Origin: a virus | Reading direction: 5' to 3' (one strand) | IMG/VR virus record: IMGVR_UViG_3300046674_000395 | Span: 1 to 64,000 of that record | Length of the DNA: 64,000 nucleotides | Shown: positions 8,020-61,694 of the stretch, in pieces | How positions within the stretch are numbered: the stretch's first letter is position 1 | Layout of the letters: each line of letters starts with the position of its first letter | Position numbers and translations under genes: made by a program | The notes under the pieces: model-generated | What the model was told of the DNA's origin: nothing | Database searches by the model: none | The model's input: the letters and a program-made list of their open reading frames with translations, nothing else

Positions 8020-8029
8020 GAGAACCTCC

Positions 8030-13539: not shown

Positions 13540-13588
13540 GGCGCGGGCTCCTTCTGTGGGGCGCGGGCGGGGTTGGGGGGTCGATAGA

Positions 13589-14227: not shown

Positions 14228-14299
14228 GAGATGTCTCCAGACATGGAAGAGCCCGCGCACGGGCGGGTACAGGGTCCGGCGCGGGCCCAAAACCGGCCG

Positions 14300-16163: not shown

Positions 16164-17198
16164 CTATCGGGCCAGGCCCTCCACGACGCTGCACCAGGCA
16201 GCTAGGTCGACGGAGGGATCCAGTTCGGTAGAGCGGGCCTTGGCGCGCTTGAACGCAAGCCGGTACTCGGCAGCCGTGCCCAGCTTCCGCAGCACAGCTT
16301 CGTAGCCGGCGACGTCCTCCCGGTCGACGAAAATCCCAGCCTCGCCCAGCGACTCGCACAGACCAGGCGTCGGGTGAGCAACGACGGGGATACCAGACGC
16401 CAACGCCTCGCAGCCCGCGCGGCCCCACGACTCGTAGGACGACGGCATCAGCAGCACGCGGGTGCGGGCGTAGACCTTCTCCCGCATCTCGTCACCGGGA
16501 ACATGCTCGACGATCTCAACGTTGGGCAGGTCCGGGAGGATCTGCTCGCCATAGGCGCCGCGCACAGCGATGAACTGCTGATCCGGCATCCGTCGGGCCA
16601 AGGCCTCAAGGACCTTCCCACCCTTCTCCGGGTTGCAGTTGATCAGCGTGATGGCCTTACCAGGCTTCGTCGCGTACTCCTCGGCGAACACCGGCGGGCG
16701 CACGATCAGAGACGACTCAGGCCGAACCGACTTCGGGTACTCGGCGAAGAACAGATCCGCCTCGACCTGCATCCACTGCGAGTTGTAGACAGCCAGAGCT
16801 GTGCCGCCCGCAGCAGCATCCCGGAACGACTGTCGGTGCGTGTTGTGGCACACGACCACCAGCGGCTTTCCGTACCCGCGGGCCATCGACGCCGTCGACG
16901 GCACCGTCTCCAAATGCCCGATCAGCAGGTCAGAACGCTTAACGGCCGCCTGAAGGTCAAGCCGCGACTCCAGCGGGATGACCTTGATGCCGCGGTACTC
17001 GTACTCCTTGTGGGCCTTGCCGTAGCGGGAAAGCCACACCTGCACGTCGTGGCCGCGCTCCACCAGAGGCCGCAGCATCGAGACGAGCATGTGCTCGGCC
17101 CCCGCATTGTGCTCCGGCGGCATCGCATGAACGCGGGCCACGATTCGCAGGGGCTTGGCTGCCCCGCCCGGCGCGGACACCGGGACAGCCCTACCCAT
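16164..17198 (-). CDS. GT-B fold glycosyltransferase (GT4/GT1-like), translationally coupled to the capsid gene
   Basis: E-x7-E motif ESWGRAGCEALASGIPVVA. Rossmann-like N-domain (RIVARVHAMPPEHNAGAEH). Its ATG overlaps the capsid stop (TGATG). Confidence 0.8.
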   Translation of the reverse strand: MGRAVPVSAPGGAAKPLRIVARVHAMPPEHNAGAEHMLVSMLRPLVERGHDVQVWLSRYGKAHKEYEYRGIKVIPLESRLDLQAAVKRSDLLIGHLETVPSTASMARGYGKPLVVVCHNTHRQSFRDAAAGGTALAVYNSQWMQVEADLFFAEYPKSVRPESSLIVRPPVFAEEYATKPGKAITLINCNPEKGGKVLEALARRMPDQQFIAVRGAYGEQILPDLPNVEIVEHVPGDEMREKVYARTRVLLMPSSYESWGRAGCEALASGIPVVAHPTPGLCESLGEAGIFVDREDVAGYEAVLRKLGTAAEYRLAFKRAKARSTELDPSVDLAAWCSVVEGLAR

Positions 17199-18157
17199 CA
17201 GGCGCTACCGGACGGCGTGCCCGTGAACTTCACGAACGCGTCCGTGTCACCGATCACCAGACCGTAGTAGGCCTCGGCGAGCAGCAGGACCAGGTTCTCC
17301 TGGAACGCCGAGTGGACGCCGCCGTCCTCGTCGACGTAGGTGGCCTCCTTGGAGATCCGCACGGTGATGTCCATGCCGACACCGAACGCGGCCTGCGACC
17401 AGTCGCCGCCGATGCCACGCAGACCGGAGTCGCTGGACGCCGACTGCCGGCGCTGCTTGCCCGACACCGAACGGGAGTACGCGAGAGGCTCCCCGATCAG
17501 GGTGCCGGCCGACGCCATGTTCGTTCCCGGCGTGGTCGTGTCGACCAGGATCGGCCGGCCCGTCGTGTCCGTCGCGAGCAGCAGCTTCGGCTTCAGGCGG
17601 TGGTCCGCGACCGTACCGGTGTAGTCCCAGTCCGAGTCGATGACCATCTCCATGCCCTTGACCAGGTCGGCCCAGATGCCGCCGCTCGCCTGTGCCGTCG
17701 TGCCCAGAGCCACCGCGTTGGTGGTCTCCGCCAGGTAGTCGTCGAACGGACCGGTCGCGCCCTTCATGGTCTTGCCGTGGATCGCGGCGTGGTCGAAGGC
17801 GCGCGCGAACGCGGTCGGCAGGTCCGTCTGCAGCTGCGTCCACAGGCCGCCCGCGTTGGTCATGACGACCTCTTCGGCGACCGGGATGAGAACGGCGAGC
17901 TTCTTCGCCGTCATCTGCTTCACACCGACGGACGAGGTGGACAGGGGCTTCTTCGCCGCCTGCCCGACCCAGTCCGCGGTGGGCACGTCCATCGGGATCG
18001 GCACCGACGTGGTCGCGTCGATCGCCAGCGGAGCGCGCCGCGCCAGGGCCATGACCGCGGACTGCTCGACGCTCTTCTCGAAGATCGGAGCGGTCAGAGT
18101 CCTCGGGAGCAGTGAAGCGTTGACATCGGAGAGCTTGAGCGGGGCCGTAGCCACCAT
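17198..18157 (-). CDS. Major capsid protein (HK97 fold)
   Basis: 319 aa after the scaffold gene. Typical actinophage capsid sequence (ALARRAPLAID...WVGQAAKKP...). Ser/Thr/Gly-rich C-terminal tail TGTPSGSA. Confidence 0.85.
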   Translation of the reverse strand: MVATAPLKLSDVNASLLPRTLTAPIFEKSVEQSAVMALARRAPLAIDATTSVPIPMDVPTADWVGQAAKKPLSTSSVGVKQMTAKKLAVLIPVAEEVVMTNAGGLWTQLQTDLPTAFARAFDHAAIHGKTMKGATGPFDDYLAETTNAVALGTTAQASGGIWADLVKGMEMVIDSDWDYTGTVADHRLKPKLLLATDTTGRPILVDTTTPGTNMASAGTLIGEPLAYSRSVSGKQRRQSASSDSGLRGIGGDWSQAAFGVGMDITVRISKEATYVDEDGGVHSAFQENLVLLLAEAYYGLVIGDTDAFVKFTGTPSGSA

Positions 18158-19710: not shown

Positions 19711-21157
19711 GGTCGGCCTCCGGTGACTGCGGCGCTGCCGGGGCAGCCGCCCCGGAGCCGAGTTCGGCGAGCCGGTCCATCAGGGCGCTGCTGCCTGCAC
19801 GTCCGGCGGCGCGCTGCCGGTCTGCGCGGACCCGCTTGCGCTGGCTTTCCGTCAGCCCGGCCATCTCCAGCGTTACGTCGCTGTCGGCCGGCAGGATCCC
19901 TTGCTGAACGAGCTTCACGGTCGCATCCGCCTGGGCCGCGATCGTCGGCGTCGCCGGGTTCCGCCACACCGTCTCGATGCGCCGTGTCTTGTCCGGCGGC
20001 ACCCCGTCACGCACCCACAGGGCGAGGCGCATCGCGTCCTGCCAGCCGCGCCCGAGTCGTCGGATGCGCCGTTCAGACTTCTTCACCAGCTTCGCTTCGG
20101 TCGACCGGATGGCGTCCGCGGAGGCCGGGTTGTCCGTCGTGTATCCCAACATGTGCGGCGGGAGACCGAACTGTGAGCTCATGATCCGCGCATACAGGTC
20201 GACGATCTTCGTCTGCCCGGACGGGTCGTGCGCAGGAAACTGGCCGACGTCGGGGACGTTGCCGTCCTCGTCCCGCTCCAAAGCGAGAACCCGGCCGATG
20301 TACGTCTCCCACGCCGACTTCGCGTTGCCCTCGGCGTCCTGGAACGCCGACTCGGACGCGCCGAGGATGTAGCGCTGCGGAGCGCCGAAGAACTCCGCCG
20401 CGACCTCGATACCCATCAGGCGCCGACACGCAGCGTCCGTGATCGACATGACGTCGTTGGTGATCTCCGACTTGCCGACTCGGTCCGCGGTGCGCTGCCG
20501 GTTCGCCAGCCGCACTACCGGGACGACGCCGAGGCCGTGCATGTCGCGCTCGACAACCTCCCAGCCGCCCGAGGTGTTCGGCATGGCCGTGATCGTCTGG
20601 TCCGGCAGGTAGAGCACGATCATGCGCTCTTCCGGACCCGACTCGATGTAGCTGTCGGCCGCGCACTCACGCAGCGCTGCCGTGCCCATCCGGAGACGGG
20701 CATCCCACAGCAGCGTCATATCGAGCGGCGACTCCACCGTGATCAGCGGCGGGCAGTCCCCTCCACAGTCGCCGGAGCCGACCGCCAGATACTCGCGGCC
20801 GTAGACCAGTGCATCCAGGTGAGCCAGCGACGACTCGTCGAACAAGTCGTTCGCGTCGGCGATCTCCTCCAGTTCCGTCGAGTCCGCGCCGTCAGCCCAC
20901 CTGAACGCCTCCAGGTCGAGGCGCTCCTCCAGGGACTCGACACCAACGCGCGGCCAACCGATCACCGTGTGCAGGCCCTTGAGCTGCGGCGGGATCGAAA
21001 TACCGAGGTCGCGGACCAACTGCTCGCCGTTGAAGTAGGCGTCCCGCAGCTTCAGCTCGTACCGGTCGCGCATCATGTCCGCACGCAGGACGTTGATCAG
21101 AGCGAGTTCGTCGTCCGACAGGAACGTCAGCGGGAGCTCGGGGGCGTAAGCGGTCAT
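19691..21157 (-). CDS. Portal protein (SPP1 gp6-like)
   Basis: 488 aa. ATGA overlap with terL. Typical N-terminus LSDDELALINVLRADM...YFNGEQ. Confidence 0.85.
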   Translation of the reverse strand: MTAYAPELPLTFLSDDELALINVLRADMMRDRYELKLRDAYFNGEQLVRDLGISIPPQLKGLHTVIGWPRVGVESLEERLDLEAFRWADGADSTELEEIADANDLFDESSLAHLDALVYGREYLAVGSGDCGGDCPPLITVESPLDMTLLWDARLRMGTAALRECAADSYIESGPEERMIVLYLPDQTITAMPNTSGGWEVVERDMHGLGVVPVVRLANRQRTADRVGKSEITNDVMSITDAACRRLMGIEVAAEFFGAPQRYILGASESAFQDAEGNAKSAWETYIGRVLALERDEDGNVPDVGQFPAHDPSGQTKIVDLYARIMSSQFGLPPHMLGYTTDNPASADAIRSTEAKLVKKSERRIRRLGRGWQDAMRLALWVRDGVPPDKTRRIETVWRNPATPTIAAQADATVKLVQQGILPADSDVTLEMAGLTESQRKRVRADRQRAAGRAGSSALMDRLAELGSGAAAPAAPQSPEADLGIDNL

Positions 21158-22908
21158 CGCAGCACCACCACCCGTCCTTTGCCGCCGGTCTTCTTCTTGG
21201 GCCGCTTCGGCGAGTTGAGGATCATGCGGCGCAGCATTCGCGCCCCGATCGCGCACACCGCGAGGTCGATCTTCCGTGCAGACTCACGGTGCTCCTTGCC
21301 GATCGTGATCCCCCAACGGTTCGTCCTGCGCCTCGCGTTGATCACGTGAGTACGCAGCACCTTGTGCCCGTCATGGATGAGCGTCCGCTCCAGCACGTCC
21401 GCGTGAGTCCGCTTCACAGCCTCCGTGAACGTCTCCTGATTGCGGGTATCACGCATGTCCCAACGCACAGCATGAGCCTTCGGGCCCGACATCACCGACC
21501 GCAGCGCAAGCTTGGAACCCCACGCCTGACCCCACGTGTCGATGTAGGCGTCCCAGTACATCTCGCCGTCGTCATCGTCCTGACCAGAGCCTGGGTCGGC
21601 GAAGAACGCCAGCACCTTGAACCGACCGAACGCGTTCTCGACGACGCCATGGACCTCGTCGCGAGGCACCCGGTAGGGCACGAAGCCTGGAGTGTTCGGC
21701 GCCGGCCAGTTCGCTGGCTTCTGCCACACGCCGAGCGCGGACACCAGCCCGTCCGACATCCGGCAGGCCGCCAGGCCCGTCGCGTCGTCCGACTTGGAGC
21801 CGTCGAAGAACAGGACGACCTCGTCGCCGTCGGCGAGCGCCAGGTCCTCGCGCTTGCAGGCGTCCCACTCGTAGCGGGCCATCCACGCGTCCTCGGCCGC
21901 GGCGATCTGGTTGTACCAGAAGCGGCGTGACCGGGACGGCGGGTTACGGACGTCGAGGATCGACGCCTTCAGCCGGCCGATGTCCAGCCACGTCGAATCC
22001 CCGCGGACCGCGCGAAGCGTCGGCTCGATCCACGCCTCTGTCAGTTTCGCCTCGGGCGGAGCCTCCAGCGTGTCGTAGAACAGCCCGACATTCACGGCCC
22101 GGCCGGCCTCCGCGGCCTCGTAGGCGTCCCTGGTCCGCTCCGCTACGGAGTCCTCGCCGGGTTCGAAGGCATTCGTGTCCGCCAGCGTCCTCGACTGCCC
22201 GTCGGCGCTCTTGGTTGCGTTGCGCTCGATCACGGCCGCCATCTCGTGGCCCGAGTTCGACTCCAGCCAGTGATGCGTCTCCCCCATCGAGGTGAAGGTT
22301 GGCCGCCCACCTTCCAAGGCGCGCGGCGACGACGTCACAGCCTCGACTCGAGCCCGGCCCTTGTCGGCATAGATGATTTCCTTGCCGAGGTCGATCCGGA
22401 ACTCTTCGATCGCCCGCTTCGAGAGGATCAGCGGGAACAGCGTCATCGTGTTCCGCGTCTGATCCTGCGACACGGCCGCGATCTGCACCCACGCCGCCGG
22501 ATGCTGAATCCCCAACGGCTGCCCCGGCTGGACACCCCACTCGTTGCCCTCGTCCGCGACCCCGTCAAAACGGCACGGCCCCACGAACTCGAACGCCGCC
22601 CACGTCGCCTTCAGTGGATCCTTGCCATGACCCTTCAGGCGCTGGATCACGCCGTCGCGCCATAGGAACCGGTTCGTCACCGGATCCATCGCGTACCACC
22701 ACAAGGTCAAACGGGCCTGCTCGGGCGTGTACTGCCACGGCTTGCCGACGTAGTGCTGCAGGTACGTCTTCGTCCAGGCGAGGCACTGCCACCCCAGCGT
22801 GTACTCGGGCAGCAGGAACTTCCCGTTCGGGCCGCGCTTCCACGTCGGCCCGAGAGTGAAGGGTTCGACGACGTCCGGGACCTGCTCGTCAACCGCCTGC
22901 GATGTCAC
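21154..22908 (-). CDS. terL: Terminase large subunit
   Basis: 584 aa with ATPase and nuclease halves in the canonical position. GTG start overlaps the terS end. Confidence 0.85.
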   Translation of the reverse strand: MTSQAVDEQVPDVVEPFTLGPTWKRGPNGKFLLPEYTLGWQCLAWTKTYLQHYVGKPWQYTPEQARLTLWWYAMDPVTNRFLWRDGVIQRLKGHGKDPLKATWAAFEFVGPCRFDGVADEGNEWGVQPGQPLGIQHPAAWVQIAAVSQDQTRNTMTLFPLILSKRAIEEFRIDLGKEIIYADKGRARVEAVTSSPRALEGGRPTFTSMGETHHWLESNSGHEMAAVIERNATKSADGQSRTLADTNAFEPGEDSVAERTRDAYEAAEAGRAVNVGLFYDTLEAPPEAKLTEAWIEPTLRAVRGDSTWLDIGRLKASILDVRNPPSRSRRFWYNQIAAAEDAWMARYEWDACKREDLALADGDEVVLFFDGSKSDDATGLAACRMSDGLVSALGVWQKPANWPAPNTPGFVPYRVPRDEVHGVVENAFGRFKVLAFFADPGSGQDDDDGEMYWDAYIDTWGQAWGSKLALRSVMSGPKAHAVRWDMRDTRNQETFTEAVKRTHADVLERTLIHDGHKVLRTHVINARRRTNRWGITIGKEHRESARKIDLAVCAIGARMLRRMILNSPKRPKKKTGGKGRVVVLR

Positions 22909-23326
22909 GGTAGGAATCCAGCGGGCTCACCGAAGCCAACCTCGGCCCGGCAGGCTTCTTCCGCTCCAGCTCCATCCGGGCACGGCGACGGTCACCCTCG
23001 GTCGTCAGCAGTGACGCCATCGCGCTGTTGAGCGCCGCGACGTACTGCCCGTTCGGCGGCCGATCCTCCGACAGTCCGCGGGACATGAGCTCAGCGACGT
23101 AGCGGGCGACCGCCCAGTCCGACGGCTCGTAGAACGCGGCCTGCCCAGACTCGCGCAGGCTCAGGTACCAGTCTGTGGCGATCGGATGCCACAGCTCGTT
23201 CGGCTCGGGCAAGTCCGGTAGATCCTCGGGAGCCCCGGACGGGGCCTGGACCAACTCGGGGCCGTCGTCCTTGTTGCGGCGACGGCGTTCCTCGGAACGC
23301 TTCGGGATAGGTCCGTGTGCGCCCAT
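22889..23326 (-). CDS. terS: Terminase small subunit
   Basis: ATG at 23326 with a GGAGG RBS. The basic N-terminus GPIPKRSEERRRRNKD is typical of actinophage small terminases. Confidence 0.7.
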   Translation of the reverse strand: MGAHGPIPKRSEERRRRNKDDGPELVQAPSGAPEDLPDLPEPNELWHPIATDWYLSLRESGQAAFYEPSDWAVARYVAELMSRGLSEDRPPNGQYVAALNSAMASLLTTEGDRRRARMELERKKPAGPRLASVSPLDSYRDIAGG

Positions 23327-23411
23327 GACGACCTCCAGGGTCAGAGCACGCCACCAGGGCATGCAGAGGGCTGGAAACAACGACGCCCCACCCAAGGACA
23401 CCGCCGGGGCG

Positions 23412-24038
23412 TCAGAGCGAGGCGATCAAACCGGCTGCATCAGGCAGCTCGGCAAGGCTGAGCGGCGTACCCGGAACCCGGTCGCCGACGATCATGTAGC
23501 GGCGATCCGAGTACACCTCGACCGCCAACTCCCCCTTGCGGATACGTCGGCCAGCCGGGACCGCGCCACGGAACCACAGATGCAGGCCGGTACCCGACCG
23601 GCCACGCTCCATGTACGTCGGCGGCAGCTGGTCCACGATCCCCTGCGCCCAGGGCAACACCTGGCCGTCCTCGACCGCATGGTCCAGGTCGACAACGACG
23701 ATGCCGTCGCCGGCCGTCAGCACGAAGCCGACACCATCACCGGTGCAGGAGGCCGCAGCCGTCGAGTAGTCCGACCAGGACGAGGGATCCTTCACCGAGG
23801 CGAAGCGGCCGTCGATGCGCATCGGAACCTTGCCCTTGTGTCGCACCCAGCGGGGACGCGAGGTCAACTCGGCCGGGATGCGGGCCTGCTGCTCGGCCAT
23901 CAGCTCCGCGTCGCGCTGGCGCTTACGGGCCCGAGCTGCGAGGACGCGGTGCGAGTCCGAGCAGTAGCGGCGGTCAGACCGGTGCACGACCGGCAGCTCT
24001 CCCCCGCAGTGCTCGCACTTCTGAAGCGTCCCTGGCAT
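23412..24038 (-). CDS. PrimPol-like (archaeo-eukaryotic primase superfamily) protein with an N-terminal zinc ribbon
   Basis: CEHCGG...YCSDSHR ribbon. Catalytic-type motifs VVVDLDH and GTGLHLWF. Confidence 0.65.
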   Translation of the reverse strand: MPGTLQKCEHCGGELPVVHRSDRRYCSDSHRVLAARARKRQRDAELMAEQQARIPAELTSRPRWVRHKGKVPMRIDGRFASVKDPSSWSDYSTAAASCTGDGVGFVLTAGDGIVVVDLDHAVEDGQVLPWAQGIVDQLPPTYMERGRSGTGLHLWFRGAVPAGRRIRKGELAVEVYSDRRYMIVGDRVPGTPLSLAELPDAAGLIASL

Positions 24039-26743: not shown

Positions 26744-27060
26744 CAGCCGACCGCCTTCCCAAGCGTCGGGAAAGGGCGCCGGGAGTAGTTGGCGCCCGCC
26801 CAGGAGATGACCTCTCCGTCGGCGGAGGCGAACACCTCGGGGCCGAGCACCGTGACGTCCCCGTCCTGGTACGGGTACGCGGCGGCTCCCTTGGTGTCGC
26901 CCTCGCGGTGGACGCTGCGCACGTTGGCGACAGGTGCGAGGGCTACGACCTTGCCGTCCTTCACGAACGTGTAGTCGCAGGCGCTGGAGTCGTATTCGAC
27001 CCCTTCGGCGTCGACGGTCTCGGTGTTGCCGTCGAGGTAGTTGATCGTGTAGCGGGCCAT
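26743..27060 (-). CDS. Hypothetical protein
   Basis: Coding frame, coupled to the downstream gene. Confidence 0.55.
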   Translation of the reverse strand: MARYTINYLDGNTETVDAEGVEYDSSACDYTFVKDGKVVALAPVANVRSVHREGDTKGAAAYPYQDGDVTVLGPEVFASADGEVISWAGANYSRRPFPTLGKAVG

Positions 27061-27084
27061 GGCGCGGGCTCCTGCGGGGTGGGG

Positions 27085-27966
27085 TTAGGTGTTGAGTGCT
27101 CGCCTCACGCCTTCTTCCAGCGTGACGGTGGGCACGTAGTGGTCGAGCATCCGGGACGGGTCGCAGACTCGGTGGTGTACGCCGCGGGGTGCGTCGGCCC
27201 GGTGCTTGAGCTGTGGCCGGTAGCCGGCGGCTGTGGTGACGATGCGGGCCAGGTCGTCGAACGAGGTGGCGCGTCCCCAGCCGAGGTTGACGGGGCCGGT
27301 GACGTCCGCGTCGAGGAGGGCGAGGGTGGCGCCGACGAGGTCGTGGATGTGGATCCAGTCGCGTGTGCTGTCGCCGGATCCCCAGATCTCGAACGGGTCG
27401 TCGCGCCGCTTGGCCCGCTGGATGAACGCGGGGAACGGGTAGCAGGGCTCTTGGTCGTCGCCGTAGCCGCTGAACGGGCGGGGGATGAGGATCCGGCAGC
27501 CTTCGGCTTCGGCGTAGGAGGCGAGCTTCTCCCCCGTGAGCTTCGCCCAGCCGTAGCTAGCGTCGGGCTCTTCCATGTACGCGAGGCTGATGTCCTCTTC
27601 GTATAGGCGCCGCACGTCGCCGGGCTGCTGGAGTGCGACCGGGTAGGCCGCTGAGCTGCTGAAGTAGACGGCACGTGGGGTGCCAGTCCTGATCAACCAC
27701 CGCATATACCAGGCGTCGAGGGCCAGGTTCGTGCCGACACCGAGGGGACTGCCGTCGATGCTGGCCCGGCCGCCGACGATGGCCGCGCAATGGATGGCGA
27801 GGTCGTACCGTTCCTCGTCGCGGCGGAAGAAGTCGAGGGCGTCACCTTCGAGGACCTGGGGGCCGGGCTTGAGGTCGATGCCGACCACGAAGTCACCGCG
27901 GTCGAGTAGCGCGCGGTGCAGGTGTCGACCGACGAACCCGGACGCGCCGGTGAGGAGGACGCGCAT
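27085..27966 (-). CDS. NAD-dependent sugar epimerase/dehydratase (extended SDR)
   Basis: VLLTGASGFVGRHL (GxxGxxG) and a YGWAK (YxxxK) catalytic motif. ATGA overlap with the upstream methyltransferase. Confidence 0.8.
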   Translation of the reverse strand: MRVLLTGASGFVGRHLHRALLDRGDFVVGIDLKPGPQVLEGDALDFFRRDEERYDLAIHCAAIVGGRASIDGSPLGVGTNLALDAWYMRWLIRTGTPRAVYFSSSAAYPVALQQPGDVRRLYEEDISLAYMEEPDASYGWAKLTGEKLASYAEAEGCRILIPRPFSGYGDDQEPCYPFPAFIQRAKRRDDPFEIWGSGDSTRDWIHIHDLVGATLALLDADVTGPVNLGWGRATSFDDLARIVTTAAGYRPQLKHRADAPRGVHHRVCDPSRMLDHYVPTVTLEEGVRRALNT

Positions 27967-28565
27967 CAACTGCTCGCCTTCACGGCGCGGTAGACGCCCC
28001 ACGGGAGTCCGCTGTCGACGGGCTCCAGGCCGAGGGTGGCGCAGGCGTCGGCCTGCTGTTCCTTCGACCAGGTGGTGACGCCGATCCAGCTGTCGGCCTC
28101 GCTGGGCTGGTCGGAGACGGGCCAGTCGAGGACGAGGATCCCGCCGAGCTTGGTCGCGGCCCGCAGCTTGGCGATGATGTCGAGGCAGTCCGTGTAGCTG
28201 TGGTGGATCAGGACAGCAAGGCTGTAGACGGCGTCCATGCGGCGGCGCCCGAGGTGTCGGGCGATGCCGTCGGCGTCGGCCAGCACGGTGTCGGCGTCAG
28301 GGAGTCGCTCGGCGAGCCGTTCGAGCATCCTCTGCGAGGAGTCGACAGCGGTGACCTCGTAGCCGTGGACAGCCATGGGGATGGCGACGCGGCCGTCACC
28401 GCAACCGAAGTCCATGACCTTCGTCCCGTCGGGGATGACGGTGGCAAGCATCTCCGCCTGAACCTGGCCAGACTCCCAGTAGGCGTCCTCGGAGACTCGT
28501 CGCAGCGGATGGATCGCAGCCGGGTCGGCCTGATCCCAGGCCTGAATGACAGCTTCGGCGGTCAT
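27966..28565 (-). CDS. Class I SAM-dependent methyltransferase
   Basis: Motif I VMDFGCGDGRVA, then acidic post-I and motif II elements. Confidence 0.75.
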   Translation of the reverse strand: MTAEAVIQAWDQADPAAIHPLRRVSEDAYWESGQVQAEMLATVIPDGTKVMDFGCGDGRVAIPMAVHGYEVTAVDSSQRMLERLAERLPDADTVLADADGIARHLGRRRMDAVYSLAVLIHHSYTDCLDIIAKLRAATKLGGILVLDWPVSDQPSEADSWIGVTTWSKEQQADACATLGLEPVDSGLPWGVYRAVKASS

Positions 28566-29272
28566 GCTGCCTCCTCGACGAGCTTCCGCAGCTTGACCAG
28601 GTCGGCTTCGAGGCCGCCGTTGTCGCGGTAGTCGTAGTAAGCCGCCGAGTCACTGCTCACCTGCTCGGGGCTGTTGCACTCCTCGTAGCCCGCATCGACG
28701 GCCGCCTTCTGCGCGGCCGGGTGCAGGTGTTCGATGACCATGTCGGGCAGGTACGTGATCCGGCCCATGCCGCGGCCCCAGTCCAGCCAGCAGAGATCCA
28801 GACAGAGGTGGACGAGCGCGGGTGGCGCCATGTAGCCGAGCGTCTCGACGATGTCCGCGGTCATCGCAACTGCGGTCGGCATCTGCTCGCCCATGAGCAG
28901 GTCGTTGCCGTAGACGATGCCGGGCCCGCCCGACAGGCACTCGCGGATGCGGGCGTCCCACGGCATCGCCGCGGGACGCGGCCGGTGGTCGTCGCCGAGG
29001 AACGCGAGGTACCGGTATGTCTTGGCAGCCTTCACGGCCTGCTGGTTGAGGGTGCCGCACAGGCGGCGCCGCTTGCCGAACGTGAACCGGATCCGCCCGT
29101 CGCCCTTCAGCTCGGCGGCGTGCTTCTTGTACGCGGCGAGTTCCGGGTCGTCGGTGTCGACCGCGAACAGCAGGTCGGCGGTGGCCTCGGTGTCGTCCCA
29201 CGCCTGCACGATCTCCGGCACGGCTTGGGGCCGGCCGCGGGTTGGGATGATGACGAGCAGGTCGTCGGCCAT
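28562..29272 (-). CDS. GT-A-like glycosyltransferase
   Basis: LLVIIPTRGRP N-terminal strand and a FLGDDH (DxD-like) motif. ATG at 29272. Confidence 0.6.
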   Translation of the reverse strand: MADDLLVIIPTRGRPQAVPEIVQAWDDTEATADLLFAVDTDDPELAAYKKHAAELKGDGRIRFTFGKRRRLCGTLNQQAVKAAKTYRYLAFLGDDHRPRPAAMPWDARIRECLSGGPGIVYGNDLLMGEQMPTAVAMTADIVETLGYMAPPALVHLCLDLCWLDWGRGMGRITYLPDMVIEHLHPAAQKAAVDAGYEECNSPEQVSSDSAAYYDYRDNGGLEADLVKLRKLVEEAA

Positions 29273-29285
29273 GGCGCGGGCCCTT

Positions 29286-31130
29286 CTAGGTGAGTGCAAC
29301 CCAGCGCGAACCGGCGTTCGTGGACTGGGACGCGAGGGTGATCGACGAGGGCAGCGAGGTGTTGCCGGCCGCGGTGTTGATGAAGCGTGCAGTGCCGACG
29401 GTGAGACCCGCGTTCAGGGCTGAAGCGGAAGCTCCGTTGCCCTGGAGAAGCTGCGGCACTGTCCCCGTACTGACCATCAGGATTGCGACGTAGTACGAGC
29501 CCACTGCAAGCGTCTGCGGCGACGTCAGTGCCACCGTCTTCAGGCCCGCTGACGTCCAGTTCGCTGACTGATCAGCGGATACTGCGAGCCGGTTTCCCGA
29601 ACTGTCGTACAGGCCTACGAAGTTCTGGCCGGAGGTCATCGAGGTGGGCGTGTTGAGGATCGACAGGAGGACGTTGGAGACGACGGTGGCCCGGTCCACG
29701 ATCTTGACCTTGCAGAGGTAGATCGTGCCCGAGGTGATGTTGTCGCCTGTCGACCGGCAGGTGGCCGGGTCGTGCGTCCAGGTGATCAGGCCTTGGTCCG
29801 CGGGCATGGCGGTCGGGTTGTTCGCGGTGCTCAGCGGATATTGGAGCAGTCCCGCCGGCATGGCGTTGCCGGTGTTGAACGTCGTGATGTCGCGGAGGAC
29901 GGTGCTGGTCTGCTTCGAGAACGTGACGGTGCCGGATGTGTTGTTCTCGATGCGGATGCGTTCGAAGATGTTCGGGGTGTTGCTGGTGGTGTTGTTGTCC
30001 TCGATGACCTTGCAGGAGCCGCTGGATTCGATGTTGATCCACTTGGCGCTGAAGGTGTTGTTGTAGCTGTTCGTACCGCAGACGAACATCTTGTTCCCGG
30101 ACTGACCGGAGTCGCAGGTCACGTAGTTGCAGTAGAACTCGTTGCTCTCGCCGTTGGCGACCTCGATGCCGGTCTTGAACTGCTCTAGGTTCAGGCCGTA
30201 GAACCGCTGACTGGCTGTACCGGCCGTGCCGCCGAGGTAGATGCCGGTGCAGGCGGCCCCGTTCGCTCCCGCCTCGAACATGATCCAGTCGTTCTGGTTC
30301 ATGTTGCCGTCGATGGAGTCGACGTAGAGGCCGTACCCGTCGGTGCCGACAATCTCGACGAAGATCCGGTTGAACGTGCAGTCGCCTGCGTTCTGGACGG
30401 CGGAGTTGTTGATGAGCTGGATGCCGTTGCGGGTGCCCTCGATCTCGATGTTCTCGAAGACCGAGCGCCACGGCATGTCCAGCCACATGCCGTAGGTGTT
30501 GCTGGTGCCGACGAACCCGCCGTTGATCCGCAGGTTCTTGAACGAGCTGTGCCAGAAAGACAGCGTGTCCCCGGAGGTGACACCCGCCGAGACGATGCCG
30601 CGGCCCGACCCGGAGATGAAAATGCACAGGTCGGAGATGTGTACCTGCGCCCAGTTCGAGATCGTGATCCCGTAGACGCCGGACGCTGCGGTGATCTCCG
30701 TGACCTGCTGACCGCACCCCCGCAGCGTGACCGTCTTCGGGTCGTTCTCGTCGACGGTGCCGTTGATCGTGATCGTGGCAGAGATGTTGAAGGACCCCTG
30801 CGACAGCTGGACGATGCCGCCGCCCTCGGCCTGTGCGTCGTCGATGGCCTGCTGGATCTGCACCTGGTCGGCGACGCCGTCACACACGTAGTCGGCGGCG
30901 TCCCGGATCCTGCTGGGCGCGCCCGCCGCAGCGACGGTGCGATAGGTGAGCGCCCTGCCGCCCCCTCCGGCCGGTTCGGCCCCAACGTCCTCGTAGGTGA
31001 TCTCGACGCTGCCGGTCTTGCCGTTGACGGAGAAGACGCTGCCGCCACCGACATCCAGAATGCGGGACGGCTGCCCGCCAGTGACGCTGATGCTGTTCGG
31101 CTGGGGTCCGCCGGTGACCTGGATTTTCAC
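29286..31130 (-). CDS. Tailspike / depolymerase-like protein with a right-handed parallel beta-helix (pectate-lyase-3-like)
   Basis: DYVCDGVADQVQIQQAIDDAQAEGGGIVQLSQGSF entry motif followed by many short Asn/Gly/Ile-rich coils. GTGA overlap start at 31130. Confidence 0.7.
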   Translation of the reverse strand: MKIQVTGGPQPNSISVTGGQPSRILDVGGGSVFSVNGKTGSVEITYEDVGAEPAGGGGRALTYRTVAAAGAPSRIRDAADYVCDGVADQVQIQQAIDDAQAEGGGIVQLSQGSFNISATITINGTVDENDPKTVTLRGCGQQVTEITAASGVYGITISNWAQVHISDLCIFISGSGRGIVSAGVTSGDTLSFWHSSFKNLRINGGFVGTSNTYGMWLDMPWRSVFENIEIEGTRNGIQLINNSAVQNAGDCTFNRIFVEIVGTDGYGLYVDSIDGNMNQNDWIMFEAGANGAACTGIYLGGTAGTASQRFYGLNLEQFKTGIEVANGESNEFYCNYVTCDSGQSGNKMFVCGTNSYNNTFSAKWINIESSGSCKVIEDNNTTSNTPNIFERIRIENNTSGTVTFSKQTSTVLRDITTFNTGNAMPAGLLQYPLSTANNPTAMPADQGLITWTHDPATCRSTGDNITSGTIYLCKVKIVDRATVVSNVLLSILNTPTSMTSGQNFVGLYDSSGNRLAVSADQSANWTSAGLKTVALTSPQTLAVGSYYVAILMVSTGTVPQLLQGNGASASALNAGLTVGTARFINTAAGNTSLPSSITLASQSTNAGSRWVALT

Positions 31131-32242
31131 CGGGTCACCTCCCGGGAGAGGATCATCCGCCCGGCCAGGATGCGCACGACCGTGGAGCCGAGGACCATCT
31201 CGAGGTCCCACACACCGTTGCGAGTGAGGGCCTGCGTCTGCGTGGCGGGGATCGCGAGCCTGACCTCGGCCCCGGCCACCATTAGGTACGGGGTGAGGTC
31301 GAGAAGGAGGTCGCCGTGGTCGGCGGGCGCGGACCGAATCTGTGCTCTGGCCGCCCACCCGTCCCAGCTGAATCCGGCATCGGTGACGGTGTACGTCTGT
31401 AGGAACGTGGACCCTTGCTCGATCCGCAGGTCCCAGTCTCCGGCGGCCATGTCTGCCACCTCCGGGATGGATCCGCTGTCTGCGTCGGCGGTCAGATCGG
31501 TCTCGGCGCCGAGGGTGGCCGTCGCGTGCATGGACTGCCATGCGGTGGCGGTCAGGGTGCTGTCGGCGGTCAGGTCGGCGGTGACGCGAGCACCGAGGCG
31601 GGCTGCCGCAGTGAGGGTGCTGTCCGAGGTGAGGGTGGCGGAGGCCGTGAAAACGGCTCCGTCGGCGAGGGTATTGAACAGGTCGAAGGCGGCTTCGTCG
31701 CTGGTGCCGGCGTCACGGTGCGCGGACAGGTCGAGGGCGCAGGTGTCGACGGAGGCGGTCACCCAGGCGGGGGTGGCGAGGGTGCGCCGGTTCGTCCACG
31801 TCGACCCGTCCGACGACGTGTCCCAGTAGACGTTGGTGCCGTCCTCGCGCAGCCGCAGGAACTTGTGGGTTGTCGAGTTGTAGGTGACGGTGGTGGCGCC
31901 CGCGTCGAAGTAGGCGACTTCTGACGAGAACTTCAGGAGCCCGGTGACCTTGTTGATCACGAACCCGATGCGGGTGCCGCTGGTCGCGATGTCGGGTGCG
32001 TTGACGAACACGCTCGCGTAGGCCTCGGTCGCGGTCGACGCGGCAGGCGTGGTCGTGACGGCGACGTAGAAGCTGGCGCCCGCGAGGGTCCAGCTGTAGG
32101 CGGTCTGATAGCCGGCGAACCCGGTGGTGCACGGGACATGGGCTTTGCCGCTCGACTCAGTGACGCTGCCGTAGCTGTTGCCCCAGTTCGCCCCGATGAT
32201 CGAGTCGTTGAAGTTGTCGACGAGGGTCGAGAGGCTCGGCAC
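31127..32242 (-). CDS. Fibre protein: ConA/LamG-like N-domain, Thr/Ala repeat stalk, C-terminal beta domain
   Basis: N-terminus LVDNFNDSIIGANWGNSYG. TLTADSTLTA-type repeats. C-terminal DWDLRIEQGSTF...VWDLEMV domain. Confidence 0.65.
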   Translation of the reverse strand: MPSLSTLVDNFNDSIIGANWGNSYGSVTESSGKAHVPCTTGFAGYQTAYSWTLAGASFYVAVTTTPAASTATEAYASVFVNAPDIATSGTRIGFVINKVTGLLKFSSEVAYFDAGATTVTYNSTTHKFLRLREDGTNVYWDTSSDGSTWTNRRTLATPAWVTASVDTCALDLSAHRDAGTSDEAAFDLFNTLADGAVFTASATLTSDSTLTAAARLGARVTADLTADSTLTATAWQSMHATATLGAETDLTADADSGSIPEVADMAAGDWDLRIEQGSTFLQTYTVTDAGFSWDGWAARAQIRSAPADHGDLLLDLTPYLMVAGAEVRLAIPATQTQALTRNGVWDLEMVLGSTVVRILAGRMILSREVTR

Positions 32243-32252
32243 GACGCCTCCC

Positions 32253-32639
32253 CTATGCGATCGACAGAGCCAGGGATCCAGCCGTCAAGCGGAGCTCATC
32301 CCCCGCGGCGGTAGTGCGGGATGAGGTGAGCGCCCCGTACCAGAGCCGCACCGGGGTGCCTGCGTTGTCCCATACTTCGACGCCGACGACGGTCGCGGCG
32401 GGCATGCCGGTGAACACGACGTCCGCGCTGTTGCTGGTGGCTCCAGAGACCGACGCGGCGACGGTAAGACTCTGGCGGGCGTAGGAACCGCCCGTGACCT
32501 CGGTGCCTGCTGCGGAGTCGCTGCCGTTCGCAGTCACGAGCGCGACCTTGAGCGGGGTGGTCGGCCTGGTCGGCGACCCGACACCGTTGATCCAGTCGAG
32601 CGTGAGGTTCTCGGCTGTATTCGAAAGGTTGTCGGAGAT
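32253..32639 (-). CDS. Small fibre-associated protein (paralog of 34482-34880); start codon unresolved, possibly ATC
   Basis: An AGGAGG RBS sits 8 nt upstream of ATC at 32639. No ATG, GTG or TTG follows the upstream stop until deep in the conserved region. Confidence 0.5.
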   Translation of the reverse strand: MSDNLSNTAENLTLDWINGVGSPTRPTTPLKVALVTANGSDSAAGTEVTGGSYARQSLTVAASVSGATSNSADVVFTGMPAATVVGVEVWDNAGTPVRLWYGALTSSRTTAAGDELRLTAGSLALSIA

Positions 32640-32653
32640 CGGACTCGCCTCCT

Positions 32654-32941
32654 TCAGGTGACGGAGAGGACTCCGGCTTTGCGGACGATGGACTCGGCGC
32701 CGGACGGGTCGATGTTGATCCACACCCGGTAGTCGCCTGGCTCGAGGACGGTGTCGCTGCCGGGGCCGACGAGGAGCCGGGCCACTCCGGCCACCCAGGA
32801 CGCGTCCTGCCACTCACTGTCGGCGGGGTCGGTGCGGTGGGAGACGATCGCGATCCTGACCGGCATGCCAGTCAGGTCTGTCCCGGCTGGGGCGGTGACT
32901 GGGACGTGGAGGAATTCCGTACTGGCGGAGGGGATCACCAC
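32654..32941 (-). CDS. Small Ig-like/beta-sandwich protein
   Basis: 95-aa beta-rich sequence (RIAIVSH...WQDASW...GDYRVWINI) between the fibre genes. Confidence 0.55.
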   Translation of the reverse strand: MVIPSASTEFLHVPVTAPAGTDLTGMPVRIAIVSHRTDPADSEWQDASWVAGVARLLVGPGSDTVLEPGDYRVWINIDPSGAESIVRKAGVLSVT

Positions 32942-34437
32942 GGTTCGGCCACCCCCCAGTCAGCGGTCCGGGCTGCCTGCACGGTCCAGGCCGAGGTGTA
33001 CGGCCGGCCGGTTGTCCACGGGTTGTAGGGGGTGCCGACGGTGAGGTCGACGTCGTCGCGGGTGGTGAGCGTTGTCCCGGCGGCGGCGAGTGTCGCTGTC
33101 GCGGTGAGCGTCGCTCCGCGAGCGGATGCTGTGGACCCTGCTGCTGTGAGCGCTGCTTCAGCGCCGAGGGCTACGCCTGCGGCCGTGGCGCGGTGGCCAG
33201 ACGCCGTAAGGGTGCCTGTGGCTGCGAATGCGGCAGTTCCGACAACGGGCGGTGTGCCTGTCACGCCGTCAGCCGTCAGCGTCGCCAGTGCTGTCAGGGC
33301 AGCAGCGCCGCTTCGGAGGACCTGCCCCTGTGCGGTCAGGGCGACTTCGGCGGCGAGTTGAGTGTCGGCCTGCGCCGCTCGTGTTCCGCTGGCAGCGAGG
33401 GCGGCGGTTGCGTCGAGCGCGGCCTGCCCTGCGGTGTTCACCAGTCCGGTGGCGGCCAGGTCCGTGGTTGCGGCCAGGCTTGCGGCGGCGGCCGTGCTGC
33501 GTTGTCCTGCCGCTGACAGGGCCGCGGTGACCGCGGCGGCGGCAGTGGCGACGACCGTGGTCTGTCCGGACGTGTTCAGGGCCGCGATAGCGGTCAGCGC
33601 CGAGTCGCCGGATGTGCTCACCGTTCCGTTGGCGGCCAGCGTTGCAGAGGTGGCAACACCTGCAGTCCCTGCGGTACTCCGGACGCCGTCAGCTGCCAGG
33701 GTGGCCGTGGATGCCAGCCCTGAGTCTCCGGCTGTGGCTCGTACTCCGCCTGCGGTCAAGGTGGCCGTCGGCGAGAGTGCTGAACCGTCTGCGGTGGAGC
33801 GGAGTCCGGAAGTGGTCAGGGTGGCGGTGGTGGCGAGCGCGGCAGAGCCGGCGGTGGTCCGCAGCCCCGACGCGGACAAGGTGGCGCTACCCGAGAGGGC
33901 CGCGTCGCCCGTAACGCCGGAGGCGACATCCGCCGCGGTGAAGTCGTCGAACCTCAGCGAGTTGGTCGACTCGGCGCGGAGGCCGACGGACGTACCGGTG
34001 GTGACGGCAGTGTCGGTGACGCTGATGCGGAGTGTGCCGTTGACGTAGCCCTTGATCGTCGAGCCGACGACCTCGAGCTTCGCTACATCCCCCGCGACGG
34101 CCGCCGCGGCGTAGCTGCCGATCGAGGTGAACGAGCCGCCGACGACTGAGAAGACGTTCCAGGACGACCCGTCGTTCCTGAACAAGTAGCCGGAGGTGAT
34201 GTTCGAGTTGCCCCTGGCCCAGATGCCGTGGCTGACGGCTGCGGTGGCGGCGATCGTGACCTGGACGCTGTGATCGCTCGACGCCATCGCGCCAGCGGCC
34301 CGGAGGATGATCGTGCCGCCCGCGTTGCCGGAGCTGAGACGGCTGGAGATGATCGACCAGTCGCCGGACACCTCGACCCATCCGGCGCCGAGACTCGTGC
34401 TGTCTGACCTGTTGAAGTCGTCGGTGAAGGTGGTCAT
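32935..34437 (-). CDS. Fibre protein: ConA/LamG-like N-domain plus a long Ala/Thr/Gly/Ser repeat stalk
   Basis: N-terminus FTDDFNRSDSTSLGAGWVEVSGDW, then about 20 degenerate 13-14-aa repeats (ATLTxxGxRxTAGxxxL). Confidence 0.7.
   Translation of the reverse strand: MTTFTDDFNRSDSTSLGAGWVEVSGDWSIISSRLSSGNAGGTIILRAAGAMASSDHSVQVTIAATAAVSHGIWARGNSNITSGYLFRNDGSSWNVFSVVGGSFTSIGSYAAAAVAGDVAKLEVVGSTIKGYVNGTLRISVTDTAVTTGTSVGLRAESTNSLRFDDFTAADVASGVTGDAALSGSATLSASGLRTTAGSAALATTATLTTSGLRSTADGSALSPTATLTAGGVRATAGDSGLASTATLAADGVRSTAGTAGVATSATLAANGTVSTSGDSALTAIAALNTSGQTTVVATAAAAVTAALSAAGQRSTAAAASLAATTDLAATGLVNTAGQAALDATAALAASGTRAAQADTQLAAEVALTAQGQVLRSGAAALTALATLTADGVTGTPPVVGTAAFAATGTLTASGHRATAAGVALGAEAALTAAGSTASARGATLTATATLAAAGTTLTTRDDVDLTVGTPYNPWTTGRPYTSAWTVQAARTADWGVAEPW
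33042..33915 (-). repeat. Coding tandem-repeat array (about 39-42-bp degenerate units) inside the fibre gene
   Basis: Periodic ATLT..G.R.TAG units seen in the translation. Confidence 0.6.
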
Positions 34438-34481
34438 GGGCCCTCCCCGTCAGGGCGTCACGCCGCCTGCGGGTTGGCGAG

Positions 34482-34880
34482 TCATGCGGATTGCGGAGAC
34501 AGACTGGCTCCCAACGACGCCAAAGTGAACTGATCGCCCGACGCCCAGGCCTTGCTCGCCGTCAGCGCCACCGAGAACAAGAACGTGCCGCCGCTGGCCG
34601 CGGTCCAGACTGAGATGTGGGTCAGCGTCTCCGACGTGCCTAGGTTGGTATATGCAGACGGCGCGGAGCTCAACGCCAGCGACGATCCCGACGACGAAGC
34701 CGCGAACGTGAAGCTGTTGCGGGTCGTGGAGCCGACGGACACGTTGGAGGTGCCTGCTGCGCCGGGGTCGCCGGTGTGCAGCTGCACGTAGGTGGCGGCC
34801 ACCGCGCTGTACGCGGAGCCGGCGCTGCGGAGCGTGTTGAGCCAGCCGGAGACGAGGCTAGGGGCGAGTCCTGCGGTCAC
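34482..34880 (-). CDS. Small fibre-associated protein (paralog of 32253-32639)
   Basis: Shared pattern: L..W(L/I)N......V.L.T..(P)G..G...(E)V..G...R..(F/L)T.A.....N...V.F......V....VW.A...G. Confidence 0.55.
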   Translation of the reverse strand: MTAGLAPSLVSGWLNTLRSAGSAYSAVAATYVQLHTGDPGAAGTSNVSVGSTTRNSFTFAASSSGSSLALSSAPSAYTNLGTSETLTHISVWTAASGGTFLFSVALTASKAWASGDQFTLASLGASLSPQSA

Positions 34881-34978
34881 TGCTCGACCTCCTCGGTCTC
34901 AGGCTCGGCGTCGGTGTCGGGTTGGGCGGGAGTGACCTCGCCGGAGGCCTCCAGCCGCAGCACGTACTCGTCGGGCAT
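34877..34978 (-). CDS. Possible 33-aa acidic peptide
   Basis: ATG at 34978 with its stop overlapping the next start. Only the distal third of the track ORF looks protein-like. Confidence 0.25.
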   Translation of the reverse strand: MPDEYVLRLEASGEVTPAQPDTDAEPETEEVEQ

Positions 34979-35083
34979 GGCAGCCTCCAGGGGTGATGTG
35001 GATCCCGCCGCCCGAGGCATGGGGAAACGGGCGGCGGGACTTCGGGGCTTGGATGAGCGGCCAGCCCCGGACTTGGGGTTTGC

Positions 35084-35115
35084 GTCCGCCCGGTCCCCCT
35101 CAGGGCCGGGCGGAC
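35084..35115 (-). terminator. Stem-loop downstream of the HTH gene and upstream of the fibre/late genes
   Basis: Perfect 10-bp stem GTCCGCCCGG / CCGGGCGGAC with a 12-nt loop. No U-tract. Confidence 0.45.
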
Positions 35116-35176
35116 GGTGGGGCCGAGCGCGGGGCGCTACGAGGCCCGGCCTGCGCGACCACCCGCGCAGGGGCAT

Positions 35177-47872: not shown

Positions 47873-47885
47873 CGCACTCCTGACT

Positions 47886-47924
47886 ACTTGGATACCCATT
47901 GGAAGCGTAGCGGGATATCCAAGT
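47886..47924. promoter_or_regulatory. Two operator-like sites directly upstream of the GntR start
   Basis: ACTTGGATAcCCAttg (47886-47901) and agcGGGATATCCAAGT (47909-47924). Confidence 0.5.
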
Positions 47925-47931
47925 TGTGCGT

Positions 47932-61511: not shown

Positions 61512-61694
61512 CTAGCGGCCCTTGGCTTCGAGCGCGTGGACGATGGCGGCGATCTGCCGCTCGAACTCGGCGCGTTCTTCGGCGTCGTTCGGGAAGAGGC
61601 GTTCGGCCATCTCCCAGTCGATGACGGCGGACAGTTCGCGGGCGGCGCGGTCGTGGGCCACGCGCCTGATCTCTGCTTTTCGCTGCGGGTTCAC
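61512..61694 (-). CDS. Small hypothetical protein (60 aa)
   Basis: GTGA overlap with the methyltransferase stop. Confidence 0.45.
   Translation of the reverse strand: MNPQRKAEIRRVAHDRAARELSAVIDWEMAERLFPNDAEERAEFERQIAAIVHALEAKGR

Follow-up and report, generated by a model that had tools for sequence, protein, structure and literature searches.

An optional cassette of predicted sugar-modifying enzymes beside the fibre genes of a Streptomyces prophage family and its possible role in virion glycosylation

Why does a phage carry a set of sugar-modifying enzymes directly behind its fibre and tailspike genes? This question is raised by a 64,000-nucleotide stretch of viral DNA (IMG/VR record IMGVR_UViG_3300046674_000395, positions 1 to 64,000; the whole stretch is called the window here), which is part of a prophage of a temperate Streptomyces siphovirus and is transcribed from its 64-kb end toward position 1. 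A prediction made earlier from the sequence (the original prediction) had proposed that a glycosyltransferase, a methyltransferase, and an epimerase in this region either build a methylated sugar onto the neighbouring Thr/Ser-rich fibres or remodel a host cell-wall glycopolymer. The nine fibre and enzyme genes that it described were all found on the minus strand where it had placed them, and the overlaps that join the three enzyme genes were real, with 4 nt (ATGA, 28565-28562) between the first two and 1 nt (TGATG, 27966) between the last two. Our comparison of related prophages showed that the trio is a separate, optional cassette that lies adjacent to the fibre and tailspike genes. With moderate confidence, we propose that it is a glycan-tailoring cassette for virion glycosylation, in which a capsid-coupled glycosyltransferase of family GT4 would be the core enzyme and the C-terminal tails of the major capsid and tail-tube proteins the prime acceptor candidates.

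To compare gene content across the family, we used 68 related loci, each anchored at the portal gene and extending 10 kb to either side, and mapped 23 proteins of the window onto them. The hosts were Streptomyces, Streptosporangium, Nonomuraea, Actinomadura, Sphaerisporangium, and others, and the presence of the GT-A-type glycosyltransferase (GT-A) and the short-chain dehydrogenase/reductase (SDR) of the trio was assessed in the 58 loci with enough upstream sequence. GT-A and SDR formed the core pair, found together in 28 of the 58 loci; the methyltransferase (MT) was absent from 10 of these 28. Among the portal-anchored relatives, fibre genes were found without GT-A and SDR in 11 loci and together with the enzymes in 5. 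In at least one well-resolved locus, the enzymes stood behind a GDSL-esterase-like gene, without Gp80 or fibre proteins. When both modules were present (loci L004, L012, L025, and L033), the enzymes directly followed the fibre cassette and stood ahead of the small genes leading up to the terminase. Fibre and enzyme genes make up two distinct modules, each varying independently of the other, so that of the "fused" adhesin and sugar modules in the original prediction only the adjacency holds. The proposed link between a depolymerase and enzymes for a related sugar fared no better, as there was no conserved pairing and no tailspike homologue was detected in L004, the sole locus among the five with both modules that reaches that position. 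The pairing of depolymerase and enzymes in the window is a coincidence of neighbouring modules.

These data bear on the explanation that the trio glycosylates the adjacent Thr/Ser-rich fibres, yielding self-glycosylated receptor-binding proteins whose stalks would be shielded from proteases or whose adsorption would be tuned. The enzymes lie only 13 nt behind the fibre and tailspike genes and follow them directly wherever both occur, the repeat stalk of the largest fibre protein is 28% Ser+Thr in 20-aa repeats, and a 95-aa protein of the fibre cassettes often has its homologue immediately before GT-A (L012, L033, L049, and L066). However, the modules are separable, the enzymes also occur behind the GDSL-esterase-like gene, the conserved Ser/Thr tails that end the capsid and tail-tube proteins are missing from the fibre proteins, and a literature search on glycosylated phage tail fibres returned no relevant published case. 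Since the fibre and enzyme modules occur independently, a trio specific to the fibres is unsupported, and we consider this explanation improbable. Of the self-glycosylation proposal, the general idea that phage enzymes modify virion proteins remained the best supported, and its tie to the fibres was lost.

The GT4 gene and the conserved tails of two virion proteins lie outside the region first described, and together they are a more informative feature than the adjacency of fibre and sugar genes. The gene for this GT-B-fold glycosyltransferase (16164-17198, minus strand; Glyco_trans_1_4 1.1e-13, Glycos_transf_1 1.6e-11), a fourth enzyme that the original prediction had overlooked, overlaps the stop codon of the major capsid gene (17198-18157, minus strand; phrog_10 2.9e-43) by one base (TGATG), an arrangement of translational coupling. 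GT4 was present at 54-87% identity in every related locus with a comparable capsid downstream neighbour, the exception being L071, a 33%-identity outlier, and was also kept in the Streptosporangium, Nonomuraea, Actinomadura, and Sphaerisporangium loci. The capsid protein of the window ends in ...FTGTPSGSA and the major tail (tube) protein (13640-14290, minus strand; phrog_117 1.9e-38) in ...PATPVYSGS, and both are candidate glycan acceptors. Across the family, the patterns were ...FTGTPSGS(A) for the capsid and ...(P)ATPxY(S/T)GS for the tail tube. The last residue was Ser or Thr in 64 of 67 capsid proteins and Ser in 60 of 65 tail-tube proteins, and Ser/Thr-rich ends persisted in distant genera despite diverged tail sequences. 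Of 17 virion proteins encoded in the window, Ser/Thr-rich C-terminal tails were seen on these two alone. A comparable arrangement was seen in TurkishDelight (L075), an unrelated 94-kb Streptomyces phage, in which a 678-aa double-GT4 (7975-10011) lies between the capsid and major tail genes; its capsid protein ends in ...SPGSTS and its tail protein in ...VAS.

The identities proposed for the three enzymes were upheld by profile searches. GT-A (28562-29272, minus strand; 236 aa, soluble) matched phrog_14945, "glycosyltransferase", at 5.7e-45 and had more than 2000 homologues, named glycosyltransferase family 2 or A. It carries the N-terminal motif VIIPTRGRP followed by FLGDDH, of which GDDH was kept in 30 of 33 relatives. 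Single-sequence and profile searches gave no Pfam GT2 match and no PDB match for GT-A, and the predicted GT-A fold is assigned by motif and PHROG. One homologue bears the name "Pas34", for which a literature search returned nothing relevant. MT (27966-28565, minus strand; 199 aa), an optional member of the cassette, is a class I S-adenosylmethionine (SAM)-dependent methyltransferase with matches to Methyltransf_25, 11, 23, and 12 (2e-13, for Methyltransf_25, to 2.6e-10) and the motif I loop DFGCGDG; searches revealed no informative close relative, only a generic class I SAM enzyme.

The third enzyme (27085-27966, minus strand; 293 aa) belongs to the extended-SDR family of nucleotide-sugar epimerases and reductases (PF01370 Epimerase, 3.4e-33). 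Hidden Markov model and structure-database searches, a check that the original prediction had suggested for the trio, found GDP-mannose 3,5-epimerase (GME) and GDP-fucose synthase (GFS) as its closest solved structures, at ~1e-19 and over the full length. The NAD(P)-binding motif TGASGFVG and the motif YGWAK are present, the Ser-Tyr-Lys triad is intact, and YGxxK was found in 34 of 35 relatives. However, an Ala aligns with the catalytic Cys and a Tyr with the synthase His, and the segment SSSAAYP was kept in 34 of 35 relatives. In literature numbering, we take the aligned Cys to be GME Cys145 and GFS Cys109, and the aligned His to be GFS His179. With the acid/base Cys and His replaced by Ala and Tyr, canonical 3,5-epimerisation is unlikely, and we infer that the SDR is a C4 oxidoreductase-type sugar enzyme rather than a canonical 3,5-epimerase. 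GT-A, MT, SDR, and GT4 have no membrane segments, the maximal Kyte-Doolittle value within the trio being ≤1.32 in a 19-residue window. Defence models of PADLOC gave only a generic methyltransferase-domain match (mad2, 7e-15) and none for GT-A, SDR, or GT4.

In the pathway that we favour, the SDR would convert a host nucleotide-sugar into a less common sugar by C4 oxidation/reduction chemistry, the soluble GT-A would transfer this sugar, and MT, where present, would methylate it. The acceptors would be virion proteins synthesised concurrently in the cytoplasm, and the leading candidate is a glycan that GT4 would start on the capsid and tail-tube proteins, at their Ser/Thr-rich C-termini. Late co-expression, the acceptor, and the existence of any glycan are inferred. 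The contents between GT-A and SDR vary among relatives, which is as expected of a diversifying glycan pathway: this position held the usual MT, another methyltransferase (L056), a 225-226-aa protein, nothing, or unrelated inserts. The 226-aa protein in the GT-A/SDR gap of Streptosporangium locus L055 had no Pfam match, and Nonomuraea locus L060 carries its near-identical counterpart. Inserts found within the enzyme cassette of some relatives were a DUF3307 multi-pass membrane protein (L001, 10594-11106; L006, 1391-1789), a helix-turn-helix (HTH) protein, and an Rv2179c-like exoribonuclease, and the enzyme cassette is a hotspot for gene insertion. A more specific, tentative version that we think rather doubtful is a two-tier glycan, in which GT4 primes the capsid and tail-tube tails and a swappable, repeat-bracketed cassette, providing GT-A, an unusual nucleotide-sugar made by the SDR, and an optional methyl cap, diversifies the glycan between similar phages. 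If true, this would be a virion "serotype" system of soil phages for which antibody evasion is ruled out as the selective force.

Several points weigh against virion glycosylation by the cassette. The glycan itself is a prediction. In tblastn searches of 50,697 phage records (E <= 1e-5), neither GT-A nor GT4 matched a Mycobacterium phage; GT-A matches were confined to Streptomyces, Arthrobacter, Actinoplanes, and Pelagibacter phages and GT4 matches to TurkishDelight. Half of the family has no enzyme cassette although its capsid and tail-tube proteins end in the same tails; whatever the function of GT4, the cassette is therefore not required for it. Large Streptomyces phages place their GT-A homologue among DNA-metabolism genes and not among virion genes, and in some relatives the cassette is split by the unrelated HTH, exoribonuclease-like, and DUF3307 membrane protein genes. 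The conserved C-terminal Ser could have a structural reason unconnected with glycosylation. A point in favour is the capsid-tail variant LAAGG(S/A)S, which was accompanied by GT-A and SDR in 9 of 9 loci, compared to 19 of 49 loci with other tails (Fisher p = 6.5e-4, uncorrected for phylogeny). The portal genes of these nine loci are only 78-92% identical, but a single clade may still be the cause of the association.

The other half of the original proposal, remodelling of a host cell-wall polymer, appeared less likely than virion glycosylation. In its broader form, the trio would modify an envelope glycopolymer or glycoprotein of the host, in the lysogen or during infection, and thereby mask receptors, exclude superinfection, or reduce the sticking of progeny to debris. 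TarP of Staphylococcus aureus, a prophage-encoded wall-teichoic-acid glycosyltransferase, is a comparable case. A soluble GT-A can use cytoplasmic lipid-linked or polymer precursors, so the missing membrane segments are no bar, and the cassette is accessory and patchy in a moron-like manner. The DUF3307 membrane protein within the cassette of some relatives also fits this explanation, as does the neighbouring tailspike, which implies that the phage recognises a surface polysaccharide. However, the enzymes do not co-occur with the tailspike, and no flippase or polyprenol-linked enzyme is present. The cassette is not located beside an integrase or attachment (att) site but lies on the same strand between virion-type genes and the terminase, with no predicted promoter or terminator of its own. 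In addition, GT-A homologues occur in Streptomyces phages of 125-135 kb, which we take to be lytic, and lysogenic conversion is impossible for a lytic phage. On balance, we regard envelope modification as unlikely.

The large phages also bring up the modification of DNA, in which the trio would glycosylate phage DNA as a hypermodified base that protects against restriction. In the 130-kb phages Jay2Jay (L073, 5357-7069) and Blueeyedbeauty (L074, 5375-7081), the GT-A homologue (~40% identity) is grouped with a second glycosyltransferase and a small nucleotidyltransferase, and this trio sits amid genes for ThyX, a deoxynucleoside monophosphate kinase, and an exonuclease. GT-A of the window also matched phrog_2675, which is labelled "DNA methyltransferase". 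Known DNA glycosylation pathways require an enzyme of the base-hydroxylating type (PMC13326640), but the window contains no thymidylate-synthase-like hydroxymethylase or hydroxylase, and tblastn of the window with Jay2Jay proteins found no homologue of ThyX, the second glycosyltransferase, or the nucleotidyltransferase. Moreover, this temperate phage has a prophage copy that replicates without modification, and the cassette adjoins virion genes and is absent from half of the close relatives. We therefore give DNA glycosylation very little credence here; in Jay2Jay and Blueeyedbeauty, this enzyme family may serve another purpose, conceivably DNA modification. Other targets of the trio account for the small probability that remains.

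The genes from 34.9 to 29.3 kb look like a variable virion-adhesin cassette at the apparent start of the late gene block, with beta-sandwich proteins on repeat stalks that would bind sugars. In the family, such cassettes consist of repeating units of a Gp80 protein, a beta-sandwich/stalk protein, and the 95-aa protein, and the tailspike is optional. The first gene of the cassette encodes a small Gp80-family fibre protein of 132 aa (34482-34880, minus strand; PF23140 Gp80 8.7e-22, phrog_240 1.6e-24, PDB 8jou_a 2e-9), and a second Gp80-family protein of ~135 aa (32253-32660, minus strand; Pfam Gp80 9.7e-24) has an open reading frame (ORF) whose start is possibly as far up as 32813. Both Gp80 matches were full-length (78.3 and 84.6 bits, compared to a gathering cut-off of 27), and the two proteins are paralogues, as the original prediction had supposed, with 33% identity (E 7e-8). 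Between them lie the genes for a 500-aa fibre protein (32935-34437, minus strand; phrog_2804 "virion structural protein" 2.8e-11) and the conserved 95-aa protein (32654-32941, minus strand). The 500-aa protein consists of an N-terminal globular domain and the predicted Thr/Ala repeat stalk, which proved to contain ~14 copies of a 20-aa repeat over residues 176-460, with a self-identity of 39% at period 20. The 95-aa protein accompanies the Gp80/fibre units and has homologues in 13 related loci, invariably within fibre cassettes or just before GT-A. Single-sequence and profile searches found no Pfam, PHROG, or PDB match for it, and the idea that it duplicates the C-terminal domain of the next fibre protein was rejected at an hhalign probability of 1%. 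Its earlier description as Ig-like (immunoglobulin-like) was thus not confirmed.

That next protein, a 371-aa fibre/adhesin protein (31127-32242, minus strand; phrog_14065, phrog_1084), was modelled by AlphaFold2 (AF2) with a predicted local distance difference test (pLDDT) score of 67. In the model, a Thr/Ala linker of low confidence joins a concanavalin A (ConA)-like beta-sandwich at the N-terminus to an Ig-like domain at the C-terminus. Single-sequence and profile searches against PDB sequences gave no usable match, but Foldseek related the C-terminal domain (8hqz_Q 4e-7, 7qg9_L 5e-6) to small baseplate/collar proteins of T5, DT57C, and 80alpha and the N-terminal domain to ConA-like sandwiches (8a9y, 5joz, 1umz, and 5ly8; E ~1e-4, TM ~0.25-0.34). 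The N-terminal domains of the 500-aa and 371-aa proteins align at invariant D, F, W, and G positions. DUF1349, which we take to belong to the ConA-like clan, gave weak matches (0.004 or weaker) in 4 of 19 relatives. The term "LamG-like" used earlier for these proteins is thus partly supported, by a broad ConA-like fold in the N-terminal domain of the 371-aa model, but no fibre protein matched Pfam Laminin_G.

The last gene of the adhesin cassette encodes a 614-aa protein (29286-31130, minus strand) that AF2 and Foldseek support as a beta-helix tailspike-like protein and putative depolymerase, in agreement with the original prediction. The model (pLDDT 77.6) shows a long right-handed parallel beta-helix, with ~30 consecutive short strands over residues 62-420, and a C-terminal beta-sandwich; the N-terminal 61 residues are of low confidence. 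The top 13 Foldseek matches were all tailspikes or depolymerases, the best being 8iq9, 7vz3, and 2vbm (probability 1.0). Homologues carry names of the GH28-related or pectate-lyase superfamily type, and those in the Streptomyces phages Frankenweenie, GiJojo, BRock, and Kromp are annotated as "minor tail protein". In Kromp, the homologue is gene 21, a few genes past the tape measure (gene 17).

The junctions of the enzyme cassette were read from the sequence. The tailspike gene stops at 29286 and, after the gap of 13 nt, GT-A starts with ATG at 29272; a gap of 24 nt flanks the cassette on its other side, and the cassette is co-directional with the virion-type genes around it. A 15-bp direct repeat, GCCCGCGCCATGGCC, brackets the three enzymes. 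Its upstream copy (29267-29281, minus strand) spans the GT-A start codon, and its downstream copy (27055-27069, minus strand) spans the start codon of the first gene past the cassette. These are the only two perfect copies in the 64 kb, compared to 0.11 expected by chance, and a copy with one mismatch (13534-13548) also lies at a gene start. The repeats could mark the borders of exchanged modules or just reflect a shared translation-initiation context. At the head of the fibre cassette, a 296-bp intergenic region (34881-35176, minus strand) that separates the first fibre gene from a MerR-like HTH gene folds into three strong GC-rich hairpins (minimum free energy -119 kcal/mol, z -2.6), and the same hairpins were found upstream of the fibre cassettes in L016, L025, and L027. 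This region is a candidate boundary between early and late transcription units and may contain early-operon terminators or a late antitermination site.

The gene order of the window is that of a siphovirus. The G+C content is 64-74%, and the real genes lie on the minus strand with few exceptions. At the early end are a C5 DNA methylase, a replication initiator, a DnaC-like loader, the DnaB helicase, and an FtsK-like protein, followed by an IS605-family TnpB insertion, the fibre/enzyme region, small genes, and the terminase. The packaging, head, and tail genes come in the order terS, terL (23401-21154), portal, protease, scaffold, major capsid, glycosyltransferase, major tail protein, chaperones, and tape measure. 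The small and large terminase genes (21154-23401, minus strand) matched Terminase_7 (3.1e-44) and phrog_9 (2.3e-67). The fibre and enzyme module lies 3.7-11.5 kb upstream of terS (22889-23401), which supports the placement of the module "upstream of cos" in terms of the terminase, whereas the cohesive-end site (cos) itself is not locatable in a prophage. The tape measure protein has 1546 aa, and the ordinary minor tail genes were found after it as predicted (3.4-8.0 kb), with four such genes (8019-3401) followed by the endolysin and holin. No isolated phage was close at the DNA level, with only two patches of ~74% identity, in a tailspike and a tape measure. For the window proteins, Streptomyces genomes contain hundreds to thousands of homologues (60-94% identity), indicating that the element is a member of a very common prophage family. 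Since phage replication genes run on to 64 kb, the window contains neither end of the prophage.

Other features of the window were recorded alongside. A candidate integrase or prophage end at 49362-50834 was rejected, as this ORF on the plus strand encodes an IS605/IS200-family TnpB (OrfB_IS605 and a Cas12f-like TNB domain) on the strand opposite to the surrounding phage early genes. A G+C dip at 47-50 kb accompanies this insertion, and a GntR/UTRA regulator (47081-47953) adjoins it. An orphan C5 cytosine DNA methyltransferase (61691-62710, minus strand) lies among the early genes. Directly upstream of terS, an odd site for a primase-polymerase-like gene, is a gene for a 208-aa Prim-Pol-domain protein (5e-8; 23412-24038, minus strand), whose position is kept in many relatives. 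Residues 697-1513 of the tape measure protein (8030-12670, minus strand) also matched the "endolysin" family phrog_971 (6e-84), which suggests an embedded cell-wall hydrolase region. The tail module closes with a paralogue pair in the minor-tail region (3401-4021 and 4031-4696, minus strand; 206 and 221 aa), both members of phrog_16452.

To our knowledge, phage virion glycosylation has so far been demonstrated solely for a few mycobacteriophages, in which it was read as antibody shielding. If our prediction is true, virion glycosylation reaches a family of prophages that is very widespread in Streptomyces and related genera, and the optional cassette makes and attaches a phage-specified sugar. 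The family signature, a capsid-coupled GT4 gene together with Ser/Thr-rich capsid and tail-tube C-termini, is simple and testable. The role of virion glycans in soil would become experimentally accessible in a genetically tractable host, where the glycans might protect from proteases, the phage's own depolymerase, or host lectins, or might affect adsorption. The independently exchanged fibre/tailspike cassette at the head of the late block is useful for annotation and for the host-range engineering of Streptomyces phages.

Compared to known systems, the enzyme cassette resembles Shigella gtrABC and S. aureus TarP in being an accessory glycosyltransferase cassette with patchy distribution among related temperate phages. 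Unlike these, it has no membrane components, is not at the int/att end, is co-directional among late genes, and has GT-A homologues in phages taken as lytic as well. The SDR shares its Rossmann motif and Ser-Tyr-Lys triad with GDP-mannose 3,5-epimerase and GDP-L-fucose synthase and departs from them in the Ala for Cys and the Tyr for the synthase His. In its model, the 614-aa protein resembles the tailspikes of Sf6, HK620, and CBA120 and the Klebsiella K2 depolymerases in the beta-helix and C-terminal beta-sandwich, whereas its sequence identity to known tailspike depolymerases is 10-14% and the TM score ~0.3. The fibre cassette recalls the multi-fibre apparatus of the podophage GP4 (Zheng et al. 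2023, J Mol Biol 435:168258; PDB 8JOU) through its two small proteins, which are members of the Gp80 fibre I family. GP4 also has a 93-aa Ig-like fibre adapter (PMC11445570), which our 95-aa protein resembles in size only, and homology could not be shown. Unlike GP4, the phage here has the tape measure and major tail protein of a siphovirus, and the partner proteins are a ConA-like beta-sandwich on a repeat stalk and a tailspike.

The closest parallel to the predicted glycosylation is found in mycobacteriophages. As reported in papers (PMC12619734, PMC12363180) citing Freeman et al. 2023 (Cell Host Microbe 31:1216), phages Che8, Corndog, and Myrna bear O-linked glycans on capsid and tail-tube C-termini, added by phage-encoded glycosyltransferases, and one of these papers describes Che8 gp110 and Corndog gp38 as essential glycosyltransferases (PMC12363180). 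Our system differs in that GT-A and GT4 have no detectable sequence homology to theirs, the cassette adds a nucleotide-sugar-modifying SDR, GT4 is universal and capsid-coupled with the other three enzymes optional, and the hosts are Streptomyces and other filamentous actinomycetes. The similarities lie in gene placement, in the kinds of enzyme, and in the tails of the candidate acceptors. As in the mycobacteriophage systems, the glycosyltransferases are in or next to the virion block, with GT4 at the capsid gene and GT-A upstream of terS in the same direction. In Corndog, the structural operon includes an O-methyltransferase and three glycosyltransferases (PMC4351075), and a methyltransferase likewise accompanies the glycosyltransferases here. 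Glycosyltransferase genes of cluster F1 phages are placed near the right genome end (PMC11256854), which on a circular map is just before the packaging genes, as for this cassette. The acceptors in Che8, Corndog, and Myrna are the C-termini of the capsid and tail-tube subunits, and in this prophage family the corresponding two proteins bear conserved Ser/Thr-rich C-terminal tails, the candidate sites of glycosylation.

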